Assembly: GCA_963765205.1 (NCBI GenBank) | Contig: CAVXVB010000008.1 | Coordinates: 443,049-507,048 of the forward strand | DNA length: 64,000 nt | Source: an uncultured Verrucomicrobiae bacterium | Lineage (GTDB): Bacteria > Verrucomicrobiota > Verrucomicrobiia > Opitutales > JABDGR01 | Reading direction: 5' to 3' | Shown here: in pieces, positions 176 to 5,752 of the stretch | Position numbering within the stretch: the first letter of the stretch is position 1 | How the letters are laid out: every line of letters starts with the position of its first letter | Translations under genes and position numbers: made by a program | Notes under the pieces: generated by a model | What the model saw: only the letters and a program-made list of their open reading frames with translations | Told to the model about the DNA's origin: nothing | Databases searched by the model: none

Positions 176-445
176 GTGGGGGGGAAAAGATGGAAGACAG
201 GAGTCAGGTGATAGAAGCCGGACAGCGGGGCCGTGGGGGGTGTTGATAAAGTGGTTGGACTGGGTTGGATTTGGGCAAAAGGCGCTGAGGAGCCAAGGCA
301 CTTAGCCGCAGGTGATTTCCCCGACAATCAGAAGGCGTTTGCATTATTTTATTTAAATACAGCACATAATTTTTTCGGAATTATGCACTTCACAAAGGCC
401 ACGCTCTGACGGCCTAAGCTGGCCGATTCCCTGATTTTGGGGCGG

Positions 446-577
446 CTATTTCTTGCGGGCCTTGGCCTTCGCCGTCTTATACGGCGGGATGGCCTCTGGC
501 TTCACTTGCACGACCCGGCGCATCAGGTCTGCGAACCTGACGGGCGGATGGCGCAATTCTTGGGATTGCGGTTTCAT
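446..577 (-). CDS. Small basic protein (43 aa), IS passenger
   Basis: Hand translation MKPQSQELRHPPVRFADLMRRVVQVKPEAIPPYKTAKAKARKK*; below the ORF-track cutoff; divergent from the RHH gene. Confidence 0.5.
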   Translation of the reverse strand: MKPQSQELRHPPVRFADLMRRVVQVKPEAIPPYKTAKAKARKK

Positions 578-600
578 GGCTACGCTGTCAAATAGCACGG

Positions 601-831
601 ATGGGATATAAACGCAAGGGCGACAAAGGGGTATCCATTACCCTACCAGCAGAGCTTGTGGACTATATTGAAAAGCGAGCAAAGCGCATTAACGGGTCTA
701 AGTCATGGTATGTCGCGGAAATTATTCGCGCGTGGGTGGATGCTGGCGGGAAGCCAATCGGAAGGCTGGATGAGAAAATGCAAAATGACGAAGATGGGCT
801 TGGCAATCCACCGACTCAAAGTAAAAAGTGA
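601..831 (+). CDS. Ribbon-helix-helix (CopG/Arc-like) DNA-binding protein
   Basis: VSITLPAELVDYIEKRAKRINGSKSWYVAEIIRAW fits the RHH pattern. Confidence 0.75.
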   Translation: MGYKRKGDKGVSITLPAELVDYIEKRAKRINGSKSWYVAEIIRAWVDAGGKPIGRLDEKMQNDEDGLGNPPTQSKK

Positions 832-974
832 TATAAAGCTGGAGCTACCGGAGCTTATGAAGCTACTGAAGTAATTTAAGTTACCGGAGCTAGTTCGGGA
901 TAATCGTGAAACCGTCTTGTCATTCGGTAACGTTCCCGTATTTTCTCACTATGCCCGATGATAGACTATAAGTA

Positions 975-1595
975 ATGACGAAGCTCGACCTCGAAACGGC
1001 GGAGCAGCTTTTGGCATTGAGGTTGAGGCGGTATGATGAATTGAAAGTGGAAATTGCAAATGTGACTTCTCAAATTCAATCCTTAGTTGATGACATCGGT
1101 GCCGTTAAGTTAGAGCAGGCCAATCAACAAAATCTTGATGGCGGAACGCCTGCTAAAATTGAGCGTCCTGAAATCAAGACACCGGCCAATGATGCCGACA
1201 TTCGAGGGCGTGAAAAATACGGGGCGGCGCGCAAGGCAATAATTGTCCTTTTGCGCGAACAGGGGCCGCGTTTAATAACAACGGAAAAAATGCAGGCGGA
1301 ATTAAAAATTCCACCTTCTACATTATATCGAAACCTTACTGATTTGCAGGCGGATGGAGTTATTTCCAAAATTGGAAACGCATGGTGTTTTAGCGCAATG
1401 ATAAGTTCGTCCCCTTCCAGCTATCAGGCATACATAAATGAGCTTACAAATCAAGGCTTCATCGCAAACGTAGATTTAACTGCATCACCCCCGGCAACCA
1501 TTCCCTATACTTCCCCGAAACCCCCTAAGGCTCGGGGGCCTAACATTTCCAACAAATTTAATATGCCTCCACAAAACGGCGCGGCAACCGGGTGA
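975..1595 (+). CDS. Coiled-coil plus winged-helix protein
   Basis: N-terminal heptad helix; AELKIPPSTLYRNLTDLQADGVISK is wHTH-like; TTGTCA-16-TATTTT promoter candidate at 917-944. Confidence 0.65.
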   Translation: MTKLDLETAEQLLALRLRRYDELKVEIANVTSQIQSLVDDIGAVKLEQANQQNLDGGTPAKIERPEIKTPANDADIRGREKYGAARKAIIVLLREQGPRLITTEKMQAELKIPPSTLYRNLTDLQADGVISKIGNAWCFSAMISSSPSSYQAYINELTNQGFIANVDLTASPPATIPYTSPKPPKARGPNISNKFNMPPQNGAATG

Positions 1596-1627
1596 TCCCC
1601 ACTTAAGCGCGCCTCTGCAAAGAAATA

Positions 1628-1720
1628 ACCCCCTAACTCTGGCCCAACTTCGCGGGCGGAACCAGAAAGGGGGTCGGTAATCCCGAGGGGCCAGATTGCT
1701 CTGGCCGCTCGTTCTTTTCC
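1628..1720 (+). ncRNA. Structured leader upstream of the tRNA-like gene (two hairpins, second terminator-like)
   Basis: ACCCCCT(1628-34)/AGGGGGT(1668-74) with TCTGG/CCAGA inner stem; CGAG-G-GGCCAGA-ttgc-TCTGGCC-G-CTCG (1684-1711) followed by TTCTTTT. Confidence 0.45.
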
Positions 1721-1725
1721 AATTA

Positions 1726-1813
1726 GCCTATGTGGTGTAACTGGCAGCCACGTCCGCCTTGGGGGCGGTTGCCTGTGTGAGCAGGCGTGTGGGTTCGACC
1801 CCCACCATAGGCA
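1726..1813 (+). tRNA. Class II tRNA: Leu-type body with anticodon UGG (Pro); no encoded CCA
   Basis: Acceptor GCCTATG/CATAGGC; D arm GTG-TAACTGGCAGC-CAC; anticodon arm TCCGC-CTTGGGG-GCGGT; V arm GCCTGT-GTGA-GCAGGC; T arm GTGGG-TTCGACC-CCCAC; discriminator A. Confidence 0.85.
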
Positions 1814-1870
1814 TTTTTTATAGGATGACAAACAAAATTTTTAACCGAAAACTTGAACGAAAATAAATTT

Positions 1871-2317
1871 ATGAAACTGGAGATTTTTACCCTTTGCGAT
1901 GAAGCGCATGAAGCAAATGGAAAGCTCTATATCAATGGGGCATTCCAAAATCTTTTTTCGGCTGGCTTCCCATGTGTCCATCCAAGATTTTGTGTGGTCG
2001 CCCGCCTTAGATTTATTCCGATAGAGATTGGAGACCACGCCATCCAAGTTACATTCAAAAATGAAGACGGCAAAGATGTGCTATCTATCCCCGTAATTGA
2101 ACAGAAGTTTTCGGTTCAAATACCCGAAGATAAAACCTCCATTGCCCTTCACTGCATAATTCTTATTAACGCAACACAATTAGGGGCACCTGGAGAATAC
2201 ATGGTGGGTTTAGCCGTTGACCGTTTGGCCCAAGCAGAGCTTCCGTTGTATGTGTCTCAAATGCCCCCGCAAGCGCAATCGCCGGAGCCGCCTTCTGTTC
2301 ACGACGGGCCGCATTAG
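1871..2317 (+). CDS. DUF6941-like beta-sandwich protein
   Basis: MKLEIFTLCDEAHEANGKLYINGAF N-terminus and PGEY near the C-terminus resemble DUF6941; the ORF track starts at 1853. Confidence 0.6.
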   Translation: MKLEIFTLCDEAHEANGKLYINGAFQNLFSAGFPCVHPRFCVVARLRFIPIEIGDHAIQVTFKNEDGKDVLSIPVIEQKFSVQIPEDKTSIALHCIILINATQLGAPGEYMVGLAVDRLAQAELPLYVSQMPPQAQSPEPPSVHDGPH

Positions 2318-2384
2318 CCCTTTTTTGCTCTTCAAATTGGGAGGTTTGGCTCATGGCAAAAATTTATCATAACCCATATTTTTG

Positions 2385-3353
2385 TCAACCCCCTATCGTA
2401 ACTGAGGCGCAGGCTGGCTCCTTATACCGCAACCGCTTGCCTTCGATGTTTTGGAGTCCGGCAATCGTGCGCGCGCCGTCAGTCAACTTGCGGGTGTTAT
2501 AGCGATGATCGAACTCTGCGAGGTAGAGCGGCAAATGCTTGAGGGAAACATGATGGAAGGTGCCGACGATACCGCGCTTGAGCAGGCTGAAAAAGCCCTC
2601 CACAGTGTTTGTGTGAACGTCACCCCGGACATACTCCCCGGCAGAGTGATTGACCCGCGCGTGCTTAAAGCCCTTGGCCGCGCGTGGGTAGGGCCGGAAT
2701 TGGTCGGTATAGACCTTTGCGCCCTCCGCCACGTTGGCCTGAATAACCGCTTTGAGGTTGTTCCCGGTGACGCACGCCATGACGCGCGAGCGGGCCTTCC
2801 CGTCGCGCTGGACAAGCGAAACGACCGGAACCTTGTTGCCAGTGTAACGACGCCCCATGCCCTTTGTTTTGCCGCCAACGTAGGTTTCGTCAATTTCCAC
2901 GGTGCCGTCAAACTTCTGCCCGTCTAGCACTGGGTCTTTGAGCGCGTGGCGGATACGGTGAGCCATAAACAGGGCCGTGCGATAGCTGCCAAGGCCCAAC
3001 ACCCGTTGCAATTCCAACGCGGCAACGCCCTTCTTGGCCGACGCGAACAGATACCAGCCGATAAACCACTTGGACAGCGGGATATGGCTGTCCTCGAAAA
3101 CCGTGCCGACGGTGACGGTGAACTGCTTGTTGCACGCGCCGCACTGAATCAGGCCGGGGCGAACCTTCTTGGCCGGGTTCGCGGCAATGCGCCATAGGCT
3201 GTCCTGCTTGGCGTTGCGGCAATGGGGGCAAACCGGGCCGCTGGGCCACCGGATGGCCTCTAGGTAGGCGCGGGCCTTGTCCTCACTGTCGAAGTGCTGC
3301 ATGATTTCCGGCAGCGTGAGCGTCTCTGGGACTGGATTGAGTTGCTTATTCAT
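2385..3353 (-). CDS. IS1595-family (ISXO2-like) DDE transposase
   Basis: Zn ribbon CPHC..CGAC; VEIDETYVGG, YTD and HTNTVEGFFSLLKRG motifs. Confidence 0.95.
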   Translation of the reverse strand: MNKQLNPVPETLTLPEIMQHFDSEDKARAYLEAIRWPSGPVCPHCRNAKQDSLWRIAANPAKKVRPGLIQCGACNKQFTVTVGTVFEDSHIPLSKWFIGWYLFASAKKGVAALELQRVLGLGSYRTALFMAHRIRHALKDPVLDGQKFDGTVEIDETYVGGKTKGMGRRYTGNKVPVVSLVQRDGKARSRVMACVTGNNLKAVIQANVAEGAKVYTDQFRPYPRAAKGFKHARVNHSAGEYVRGDVHTNTVEGFFSLLKRGIVGTFHHVSLKHLPLYLAEFDHRYNTRKLTDGARTIAGLQNIEGKRLRYKEPACASVTIGG

Positions 3354-3359
3354 GCCCTC

Positions 3360-3387
3360 AATATAGCATAGTTCAAACCTTTGTCAA
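3360..3387 (-). promoter_or_regulatory. Sigma70 promoter for the transposase, -35 inside the IR, probably leaderless
   Basis: TTGACA-16 nt-TATATT with extended -10 TG, 6 nt before ATG 3353. Confidence 0.65.
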
Positions 3388-3655
3388 GTGCATAATTCCG
3401 AATTTTTTGGGCGGCAAGGAATGTTTTGATTTTATTCTCGAAGCGCATATACATAATATACCTCTTTGTGTTCAACTAGGGATCCATCATGAAGGTGAAC
3501 GGCTGAAGCAAAAAAATTTAATTTTTAAGAAATTTGATAAAAGGCTCCGCAAAACTGTTGGAGAACCGCATAAATATAAATCGATTATAGAAATGCAGTA
3601 CGTCAGACCAATAAAGTCAAAGGATTCGCCATAAGCACTTTTGCCCTAAAGTGAA

Positions 3656-5752
3656 TCACTGAGGTAGCTTTTTACCGTCACGTAGATTTCTATACCATGT
3701 AAGCGCCAAGAGGGGCCAAGCCCATTGGTAGGAAGTATATTTCAAATAAAAAATTCTCGGAAAGCCCGTTCCGGTAAACCATGGATAATGCCAGGAGCCG
3801 TCGGGGTGTTGGGTTTCTAACAGGTATTGGATGCCGCGTTCAATTGAAGGGCGGTCTAGTTTCGAGTTGGGGTCGGAGTCGGTAGTGGACGCGGCGCAAG
3901 CAAGTAAACCCAGCAAGGCCCAAGCCGTTTGGGAGGCGGTGGAGGGGTGGTGTAAGTTTTTAGTTTCTAGTTTTTGGTTTTTAGTTTCGGATTGGTCGGC
4001 AGCTTTTTCCATTTTCCATTTTCCATCTTCTATTATTTCCCCGTAACTCGGCAGTTCGCCGGTGGGGCCGGTGGGGGTTACTTGGAAAAACGGGGCGCCA
4101 GCGCCGCGGGTTTGGGGGTCGTGGTAGGTCCAGCAGGATTCGCCCCAGCCGCCGTCGGGGTTTTGCATTTTCTCCAGCCAGTCGCGGGCGCGCAGGACGC
4201 GGGGTTGGGTCATGTCTTCGCCGATGAGGGCGAGGCCGCGCAGGACGTGCGAGGTGCCGTAAATATAATTGACGCCCCAGCGGCCGAACCAGGAGCCGTC
4301 GGGTTCCTGGGTGCGCCAGACGAAGTCGAGGGCGCGCTGGACGAGGGGGTCGGCGCGGGAGTGGCCGGTTTTGGCGAGGGTTTCGAGGGCGCGGCCGGTG
4401 ATGTCGCTGCAGGGGGGGTCGAGGATGGCGTTGTGGTCGGCGAAGGGTACTTGTTCGAGCCAAGGGGTGGTGAGGTCGCGGTCGAAGGCGGCGAATCCGC
4501 CTTCCTTACATTGGAAGGCGCGGCACCAGGCCATGGCGCGCTGGAGGGCGGCGGCGCGGCGGGGTTCGTCGGTGGCGCGGAGGACGCGGAGGGCGAGGAC
4601 GACTTGGAAGGTGTCGTCCACGTCGGGGTAATACTCGTTGTTGAATTCGAAGGCCCAGCCGGCGGCGGTGGGGAAGGAGACGGTTTCGGCCCAGTCGCCT
4701 TTGATTTTGATTTCTCGGTCGAGGAGCCAGTCGGCGGTTTTTTGGAGGCGGGGGTCGGCGGCGGGGACGCCGGAGTCGGCGAGGCATTGGGCGATGATGG
4801 CGGTGTCCCAAACGGGGGAATAACAGGGGGCGACGCGGAGGTCGCCGGGGTCGCCGCGGACAAGGCCGTCGAAGTCGCGGGTTTCCTTGGCGAAGAGGGG
4901 GTGGTCTTTGAGGCCGAGGAGTTCGAGGGCGATGAGGGTGTTCAACATGCCGGGGAAGATGGCGCCCATGCCGTCGGAGCCGTCGCCGAGGCGGGCGAGC
5001 ATCCAGTCGCGCGCGGCGTCGAGGGCGCGCTGGCGGAGGAGGTCGGCGGGGAGGTGGTTGAGGACGCGGCCAAGCTGGTCGAGGGCGAGGAAGAGGTTGC
5101 GCCAGGAAAAGAATTCGTCGGAGCGGGGCAGTGACCAATCGCCGTGTTGGGTGCCACCGGGGTAAAGTTCGTCGAGCGAGGGGCAGGCGGGGAGGATGCG
5201 GACGGGTTTGTAATGGTTGATGACGGTGAGGGGGACGACGAGGTTGCGCGTCCAGGAACTCATTTTATAGATATGGAAGGGGGCCGAGGTGGGCAGGAGC
5301 ATCATTTCGGCGGGGATGAGCGGGCAGTATTGCCACGGGAAGAGGCCGCACATGGCGAGGTAGAGTTTGCCGAAGGTGTGGAGTTTGGGGATGCCGCCGA
5401 GGGCGAGGGCGCGTTCGCGGGCGCGGAGGAATTGGGGCGCGGTTGGCTCCATGCCGGTGAGGCGGAGGGCGTGGTAGCCTTTGATGGTGGCGGCGATTTC
5501 GGCGGGGCCGCCGGGGAACTGGGGCCAGCCGCCGTCGGGGAGCTGGCGGGCGAGGATGTGGGCGCGGCAGCGTTCGTTCTGGGCTTTCCCGGGCTGGCCG
5601 GCCCAGTGGTAATAGAGGACGAAGTCGGAGACGACGGTGCTGTCCACAATCAACTCGCACTCCCAAAAACCGCGGGGGTCGAAGCGGGAGAAGAGGTAGT
5701 CTTGGGCGCGGGCGATGGCGTCGCTGACGTTGATGCAGGCGGGAGCGGACAT
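3656..5752 (-). CDS. shc: Squalene-hopene cyclase
   Basis: YYPDVDDT (DXDD), QW repeats (QLPDGGW, QEPDGSWFGRWGVNY, QNPDGGWGE), TGTGFPR; carries an insertion of about 50 aa. Confidence 0.95.
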   Translation of the reverse strand: MSAPACINVSDAIARAQDYLFSRFDPRGFWECELIVDSTVVSDFVLYYHWAGQPGKAQNERCRAHILARQLPDGGWPQFPGGPAEIAATIKGYHALRLTGMEPTAPQFLRARERALALGGIPKLHTFGKLYLAMCGLFPWQYCPLIPAEMMLLPTSAPFHIYKMSSWTRNLVVPLTVINHYKPVRILPACPSLDELYPGGTQHGDWSLPRSDEFFSWRNLFLALDQLGRVLNHLPADLLRQRALDAARDWMLARLGDGSDGMGAIFPGMLNTLIALELLGLKDHPLFAKETRDFDGLVRGDPGDLRVAPCYSPVWDTAIIAQCLADSGVPAADPRLQKTADWLLDREIKIKGDWAETVSFPTAAGWAFEFNNEYYPDVDDTFQVVLALRVLRATDEPRRAAALQRAMAWCRAFQCKEGGFAAFDRDLTTPWLEQVPFADHNAILDPPCSDITGRALETLAKTGHSRADPLVQRALDFVWRTQEPDGSWFGRWGVNYIYGTSHVLRGLALIGEDMTQPRVLRARDWLEKMQNPDGGWGESCWTYHDPQTRGAGAPFFQVTPTGPTGELPSYGEIIEDGKWKMEKAADQSETKNQKLETKNLHHPSTASQTAWALLGLLACAASTTDSDPNSKLDRPSIERGIQYLLETQHPDGSWHYPWFTGTGFPRIFYLKYTSYQWAWPLLALTWYRNLRDGKKLPQ

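Follow-up and report, generated by a model that had tools for sequence, protein, structure and literature searches.

Passenger-carrying members of the IS1595 family of insertion sequences (ISs) are called transporter ISs. One of them, about 3 kb long, occupies positions 376–3400 of the 64,000-nt stretch analyzed here, which comes from an uncultured Verrucomicrobiae bacterium (contig CAVXVB010000008.1); this whole stretch is called the window, coordinates are positions in it (position 1 being its first letter), and L-numbers are the labels of the loci compared with it. Besides its transposase gene, the element holds a ribbon-helix-helix (RHH)-like protein, a protein made of a coiled coil and a winged helix-turn-helix (coil-wHTH), two hairpins, a tRNA with a leucine-type body and a UGG anticodon, and a DUF6941 protein (Table 1). 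The initial annotation of this DNA took the co-oriented cargo for a possible functional unit built around the odd tRNA; it mentioned neither the 43-aa open reading frame (ORF) at 446–577, nor the two CCA codons discussed below, nor the leucine-type body. What would a transposon gain from a tRNA of its own? In many related elements, two fixed codons of the transposase gene match the anticodon of the carried tRNA, and this points, tentatively, to an element that reads its own enzyme in its own way.

Table 1. Features of the IS1595-family element and its borders in the window (IR, inverted repeat; TSD, target-site duplication)
Feature	Position	Strand	Details
Left TSD copy	368–375	+	AATTTTTT, 8 bp, same as 3401–3408
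Distal IR	376–398	+	23 bp, 22/23 match to the opposite end
43-aa basic ORF	446–577	-	General to the IS1595 group, not carrier-specific; profile matches in 21/36 carriers and 30/97 non-carriers
RHH-like protein	601–831	+	Variable passenger, likely repressor; PF01402 19.9 bits (cut-off 20.5), E 7e-4, below cut-off
13-bp direct repeat pair and sigma70-like site before the coil-wHTH gene	843–944	+	Putative operator and promoter; 9/12 promoter match at 917–944
Coil-wHTH protein	975–1595	+	HTH matches under cut-off; recurrent partner architecture of the tRNA
Two hairpins between coil-wHTH gene and tRNA	1620–1718	+	Second one terminator-like; folding of 1620–1712, terminator scan
Type II tRNA, leucine-type body	1726–1813	+	Anticodon UGG (1760–1762); ARAGORN; Rfam 41 bits
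Possible antisense promoter pointing into the tRNA	1817–1844	-	Borderline: score 7.6, threshold 8
DUF6941 protein	1871–2317	+	Variable passenger; PF22091 110 bits; same position only in L167
IS1595 transposase (zinc ribbon, HTH, DDE)	2385–3353	-	322 aa; NCBIfam IS1595 196 bits, cut-off 75; Pfam zinc ribbon and DDE above cut-off
CCA site 1 (P313)	2415–2417	-	After the C-terminal GKRLxYxx motif
CCA site 2 (P141)	2931–2933	-	Linker between HTH and DDE domain, after RIRxAM
Transposase-side IR	3378–3400	-	23 bp; overlaps a strong sigma70-like site (11/12) for the transposase
Right TSD copy	3401–3408	+	AATTTTTT, 8 bp

The element has the features taken for the IS1595 family from the available text of PMC8101967: terminal IRs, an 8-bp TSD and a single transposase with an N-terminal zinc ribbon and a DDE_Tnp_IS1595 domain. 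Its ends and enzyme are as the initial annotation had described them (23-bp IRs with one mismatch, a perfect TSD, an intact transposase), and domains, repeats and cargo ORFs together bear out the call of an IS1595 element with passengers. Cargo is the norm in this group: of 42 bounded controls, 40 are 1.6–4.3 kb long. The GC content of the cargo (0.47; transposase gene 0.60) had been said to fall below that of the flanking genes, which holds against the right-hand host gene (0.63) but not against the left flank (1–375, 0.49). The 4.0-Mb host genome has one copy of the element and 11 other IS1595-type loci with different cargo. Because the element is single-copy, has a perfect TSD and was not found in the 20 relatives searched, the insertion is likely young, in agreement with the earlier view of a recent event. 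Five stretches fetched beside the squalene-hopene cyclase gene lack both the element's proteins and its tRNA, and three of them show both host neighbour genes without the element; a base-exact empty site was not seen among the relatives examined, nor an empty-site joint across the element in four public runs. No RNA run is listed among the public runs holding the sequence. Chance or assembly error was rejected, a public-run contig over 1198–2091 being identical (perhaps from the source sample) and the tRNA family being recurrent. Five more IR- and TSD-bounded IS1595 elements with other cargo lie in genome G000 (C5:5416–8849, C9:261449–264939, C9:960161–962500, C9:607108–610166 and C2:159719–161444); in the C5 copy the transposase gene is interrupted by a stop, and a second transposase gene lies within the copy.

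ARAGORN calls the tRNA gene tRNA-Pro(UGG). The 88-nt molecule has a 7/5 acceptor branch, a 19-nt variable region, G1-C72, C2-G71, A15-U48, G18G19, A20a, U33, U34 and A73, and no encoded CCA end. The leucine identity features A73, A15-U48, G18G19 and A20a are thus all there; in the available text of PMC9976931 the E. coli leucine determinants exclude the anticodon, and every determinant listed there is present. With the anticodon masked, the five host leucine tRNAs ranked above the 49 others among the 54 host tRNAs, and the D-arm motif led to 121 viral tRNAs, 120 of which have leucine anticodons. Among the criteria for a bacterial tRNA-Pro, G35, G36 and A73 are found, while C1-G72, G15-C48 and a short variable loop are replaced by G1-C72, A15-U48 and the 19-nt region; these features are a weaker test because the host prolyl-tRNA synthetase (ProRS) belongs to family I. 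The host already has a normal tRNA-Pro(UGG) and a full leucine set. From published identity rules, leucylation by the host leucyl-tRNA synthetase (LeuRS) is predicted. In G000, seven tRNA genes, one of them an atypical tRNA-Pro(CGG), form an array at C9:1287772–1288740.

This tRNA belongs to a family. A pattern search for the leucine D-arm with UGG returned 110 loci in 185,579 genomes, 79 of them with long flanks. An IS1595 transposase lies in the locus of 13 of the 19 intact cloverleaves among these, vs 1 of the 60 non-intact matches, which by eye are intron-split genes and attachment-site remnants. The 31 short-flank loci behave alike (5/10 intact vs 0/21 non-intact), as do viral contigs (4/6 intact, two being the same gene, vs 0/13), and no IS1595 transposase was nearby for any of 120 ordinary viral leucine tRNAs. 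Record titles place the loci in Acidobacteria, Planctomycetes, Verrucomicrobia, Gemmatimonadales, Chloroflexota and Proteobacteria. In 15 other elements, IRs and an 8-bp TSD enclose both tRNA and transposase (L150, L154, L167, L180, L190, L230, L235, L164, L236, L285, L429, L435, L510, L674 and L692). The 47 distinct intact UGG genes have A73 in 46 cases and U48 in all, with many pair types in every stem; their stem pairing and D-arm are not independent evidence, since genes were selected partly for pairing and the pattern itself prescribed the D-arm. In 34 of them the CCA end is likewise not encoded.

The same body bears other anticodons. A scan for any anticodon except those with A35 gave, among the 120 metagenome loci listed, at least 60 distinct intact leucine-type genes, at least 9 of them beside a transposase; their anticodons were those of Pro (at least 20), Ala (at least 14), Gly and Asp (at least 5 each), ochre and Ser (at least 4 each) and others. 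Approached from the transposase side, a mismatched type II tRNA was found in 6 of 80 viral IS1595 loci chosen by protein alone (L561 among them), in none of 19 IS1595 loci of the phylum and in none of the 11 other host copies, so that tRNA carriers are a minority of IS1595. The Pro-anticodon tRNAs first found from that side are leucine-bodied in eight cases out of eight. Other irregular tRNAs were noticed along the way: a type I tRNA whose body looks arginine-like by eye and whose anticodon is GCU (Ser), immediately following a coil-wHTH gene and a hairpin (L552:8740–8813); a Ser-like body with a CGC (Ala) anticodon inside an IS1595 (L577:6189–6278); an allo-like UAU tRNA in tandem with a leucine-bodied GGA tRNA inside another (L521:5175–5360); another irregular tRNA-like sequence, 110 nt ahead of the leucine-bodied tRNA (L217, L235, L386, L405 and L259); and leucine-bodied ochre (UUA) suppressor tRNAs (L315, L398, L432, L429 and L300), three with a coil-wHTH gene directly downstream.

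The transposase gene itself also suggests that the tRNA matters to the element. When the transposases of 22 UGG carriers were compared with those of 97 non-carriers, the prolines of site 1 were coded by CCA in 15/15 cases vs 2/20, and those of site 2 in 17/20 vs 5/35, while all the other transposase prolines showed no bias (44/273 vs 130/924). Both sites are CCA in 13/22 carriers and 1/97 controls, and in L154, L167, L405 and L547 they hold the only CCA codons of the gene. A quick tree of 128 transposases spreads the carriers over six or more clades that also contain non-carriers, and it places the AGG pair L435/L515, whose two sites both read CCT, next to UGG carriers that use CCA. A blind test on 22 new transposases gave five in which one or both sites were CCA; a leucine-bodied UGG tRNA accompanied four of the five and none of the remaining 17. 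Site 1 is leucine in 27/97 controls, deep clades included; both CCA sites are mostly preceded by Glu, Asp or Gln; and CCA makes up 8% of host proline codons. Such a match at two synonymous sites argues that the element benefits when they are read by its own tRNA, and it supports the earlier idea of a translation-modulating role. No matched codon was seen for UGG in the 43-aa ORF or the coil-wHTH gene. Two further ideas were rejected: a special ochre stop at site 1 in the UUA carrier L429 (L510 and L544 stop there too), and a slippery sequence or longer pairing between tRNA and mRNA at the CCA sites, whose flanks are not conserved.

How much of the remaining cargo travels with the tRNA? Of 170 neighbour ORFs from 30 tRNA loci, 89 were scanned with Pfam, which gave no RHH, a single DUF6941 (in L167, with the gene order of the window) and scattered HTH_3, Fic, PIN, ParE, HindIII, AlbA_2 and IrrE genes. 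What recurs next to the tRNA is a co-oriented coil-plus-wHTH ORF. A profile built from 16 such ORFs and run on 5387 ORFs (E < 0.05) matched seven further tRNA loci and two control loci, both of which have an odd tRNA directly behind the ORF; when 27 further loci with 981 ORFs were searched, three of the top four matches adjoined UGG tRNAs. These matches are to be read with identities of 11–20%, a leave-one-out recovery of 8/16 and, for the window protein, an E-value of 0.48, a weak sequence link. An upstream hairpin (z <= -2) precedes 16/23 IS-borne UGG genes, vs 4/23 with one downstream. The recurring set is therefore tRNA, transposase codons and, often, coil-wHTH and hairpin; the five-part cargo is not a conserved unit, contrary to the earlier proposal, although the notion of an element built around the odd tRNA stands.

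With the element, the anatomy of its tRNA, the tRNA family, its link to IS1595 and the codon-anticodon match established, we propose, at a little less than an even chance, that the tRNA puts leucine at the two CCA codons and thereby switches the transposase to a likely more active form. The tRNA would be charged with leucine by the host LeuRS, as the identity rules suggest, and leucine would be inserted for proline at codons 141 and 313. The leucine form would be the active one, and with two sites its share would rise steeply once the tRNA was derepressed or host Pro-tRNA ran short. Under normal conditions the coil-wHTH gene upstream, together with the hairpins and possibly antisense transcription, would keep the tRNA scarce, since leucine at proline codons would presumably harm the host proteome.

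Several observations weigh against this proposal. The window tRNA has a U27-U43 mismatch found in 1/47 family genes. The host ProRS is of the archaeal/eukaryal family I type; in the sources as far as available, such enzymes lack the G72 requirement and G1-C72 is even a determinant in one archaeon, so that proline or mixed charging is possible. As for the codons, 9/22 carriers lack CCA at one or both sites, L506 (CCA at both sites) and L669 (at one) show no tRNA, a codon match is absent from seven carriers (L561, with AGG, and six whose anticodons are not those of Pro), the AGG switch is one event, and the P values for the match ignore kinship. At site 2 close non-carriers retain proline but encode it differently, and several have proline at site 1 too; leucine is therefore no simple restoration, and the direction of its effect is a guess.

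An alternative that we consider unlikely is that the tRNA is mainly a toxin mistranslating the host proteome, with the coil-wHTH protein, the hairpins or an antisense RNA as antidote in an addiction or abortive-infection system, the CCA sites being a feedback link only. A perfect 7–14-nt complement of the tRNA's own anticodon arm lies within 130 nt downstream in 23/108 family genes and upstream in 7. With G-U pairs allowed, a score of 10 and a distance of 200 nt, leucine-type non-cognate tRNAs have such a complement in 27/105 cases vs 284/9434 for foreign arms. It co-varies with the anticodon (CGC 7/8, GCC 5/6, GTC 4/6), and in about 20 loci it sits between a sigma70-like promoter and a terminator, from which a separate small RNA is predicted, one carried by relatives outside IS1595. 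Among 63 loci, 11 have the complement, 21 the coil-wHTH and one both, a near mutual exclusion. In the available text of PMC11028032, leucine tRNAs with Pro, Arg, Ala or Gly anticodons are among the most harmful in yeast, and the natural anticodons listed above include those most toxic on that body; allo-tRNAs are lethal in E. coli (PMC5389517, as far as available), and some elements hold ParE, Fic or PIN genes. Against it, an anti-anticodon sequence is missing from the element (best score 8.0 against a null mean of 9.8), as from nearly all IS-borne UGG genes (5/46 UGG genes have one). Moreover, the 29 coil-wHTH profile matches in the host phylum include none near a mismatched tRNA, 12/26 complement-free IS carriers also lack a detectable coil-wHTH, and the retention of CCA at fixed sites is left unexplained. 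No cargo ORF matches a toxin family in Pfam or NCBIfam (PADLOC was not searched), and the RHH gene has no known protein toxin beside it as a type II toxin-antitoxin pair would. The leucine switch and a toxin-antitoxin role can both hold.

In the relatives the predicted small RNA gene lies 40–80 nt past the tRNA 3′ end and consists of a promoter, a 13–17-nt anticodon-arm complement that co-varies with the anticodon, a hairpin and a terminator (L372, L378, L385, L390, L397, L406, L408, L428, L457, L364, L396, L454, L380, L413, L451, L388, L371, L389, L404, L410 and L417). Together with its tRNA it is a candidate pair of tRNA toxin and anti-tRNA. Antisense promoter-like sites pointing into the tRNA (threshold 8), scored with a sigma70 matrix, occur in 9/28 IS-borne UGG genes vs 5/70 ordinary leucine genes and 4/54 host tRNAs, and in 3/8 transposase-found carriers. 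A different arrangement was seen in L161, L221 and L228 (and L381), where a divergent ORF, NYN-like by eye, lies between two complements of the UGG anticodon arm placed about 60 and 740–800 nt before the tRNA; read on the strand of this ORF, the complements resemble the anticodon arm itself, as target sites of an anticodon nuclease that limits itself might do.

Could the tRNA simply be charged with proline, or with both amino acids, and supply a rare codon? Transposase synthesis would then run at a pace set, through the CCA sites, by the element's own tRNA, the amino acid unchanged. Besides the family I ProRS, this draws on the presence of G35, G36, G37 and A73, on the rarity of CCA in the host, on the Glu, Asp or Gln before the sites and on proline being native at site 2. 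We find it distinctly unlikely: the host has its own tRNA-Pro(UGG), about 130 transposase-picked loci show no ordinary tRNA-Pro in an IS1595 element, all eight Pro-anticodon tRNAs found there being leucine-bodied, and the same body bears 20 other anticodons, many with anti-anticodon RNAs that would be needless for a harmless tRNA. Less probable again is a damping role, in which a transposase with leucine at both sites would be weaker and the tRNA, being diffusible, would hold transposition down by copy-number feedback. The codon match fits this equally well, non-carriers keep proline at site 2 and the element is single-copy; leucine is nonetheless tolerated at site 1, many deep-clade transposases having it there, and mutants freed of the brake ought to spread. 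That the window tRNA is a decaying or silent passenger in a chance collection of cargo is hardly credible, for despite its mismatched pair, the missing CCA end and anti-anticodon RNA, and the RHH and DUF6941 genes that barely recur, no other stem or identity base is damaged, the transposase gene retains its two CCA sites, and most family genes also lack an encoded CCA.

Returning to the leucine switch, a wider picture can be drawn in which mobile elements run private codes. Widespread leucine-bodied, anticodon-swapped tRNAs would be toxic decoding switches, which in IS1595 would recode two CCA codons to turn on the transposase, for example at a shortage of host Pro-tRNA, and elsewhere would be paired with an anticodon-arm small RNA in toxin-antitoxin systems with the tRNA as toxin. 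This is possible, though on balance we doubt it. If the switch is real, a transposon governs its own enzyme by giving a sense codon another meaning, and programmed mistranslation has a large natural source that has been filed as "tRNA-Pro" by standard annotation. The purpose of natural mistranslating tRNAs can be tested directly here, with two codons, one tRNA and one transposition assay, and the anti-anticodon RNAs of the relatives would be a new way of silencing a tRNA.

Gating by a tRNA has a precedent in the bldA/TTA codon switch of Streptomyces, where a cognate chromosomal tRNA gates chosen genes through one codon; the tRNA of the element is non-cognate and mobile. Passenger-carrying IS1595 members share with the element the single zinc-ribbon/DDE transposase, short IRs and 8-bp TSD, and we found no report of one with a tRNA passenger or matched transposase codons. 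The allo-tRNAs and irregular tRNA polycistrons of Mukai et al. (PMC5389517, as far as available) are likewise long-arm tRNAs with many non-cognate anticodons, from soil bacteria, near toxin-antitoxin and transposon genes, and their missense suppression and toxicity were shown in E. coli. They differ in their 8/4 or 9/3 branch, mostly G73 or U73 and Ser or Ala identity, where the window tRNA has a 7/5 branch, A73 and leucine determinants; the main-text parts available describe no codon match or anti-anticodon RNA, and the supplements may hold related sequences. The Streptomyces tRNAProX (PMC10404621; review PMC11415595; both as far as available) are also natural bacterial tRNAs whose body and anticodon disagree and which are toxic when expressed. 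Here the direction is reversed, a Pro body with A33/A34 bearing Ala, Asn or Thr anticodons and served by a dedicated, linked ProRSx, whereas the window tRNA has a Leu body, U33 and U34 and the element contains no synthetase; the available text of PMC10404621 has none of the words transpos*, mobile or leucine. In the RNA-only toxin-antitoxin system CreTA (PMC8501985, as far as available) a small RNA acts on decoding and is checked by an RNA, but CreT sequesters a host tRNA and CreA works via Cascade, while the tRNA of the element is itself non-cognate and mobile. Neither the IS family nor mistranslation by tRNAs is new in itself; their coupling was not found in print. The literature searched, with most subscription papers and all supplements outside the search and some sources available in part, describes no family of non-cognate tRNAs with leucine identity in insertion sequences, no transposase whose codons match a tRNA carried with it and no small RNA directed against an anticodon.

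Of the remaining cargo, the coil-wHTH protein was modelled, a structure prediction having been suggested as a check, with a predicted local distance difference test score (pLDDT) of 84, one long helix at residues 3–54 and a generic wHTH at 84–139. Its Foldseek and PDB profile matches are generic wHTH domains, Z-alpha among them, and its Atlas scores are all under 0.9. A search for close homologues returned only the window protein itself; 1.84 billion representatives gave five matches, one of them full-length at 27%. A single-protein viral scan with the transposase found nothing. The segment 1620–1712, once described as a structured RNA, has no Rfam match and no homologue in 160 loci or 400 phylum genomes and is read as hairpins; its fold has a z-score of -3.7, and 0/200 shuffles were equally stable. 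The sigma70-like scan that gave the 917–944 site found five sites vs 4.0 in shuffles. A strong sigma70-like site (10/12) at the transposase stop (2361–2388, minus strand) points through the DUF6941 gene to the tRNA on its antisense strand. The family of the 43-aa basic ORF is present in about a third of the IS1595 loci examined. Outside the element, the squalene-hopene cyclase gene holds a low-complexity insert at 3950–4040 that matches many short repeats across the genome and the genus.

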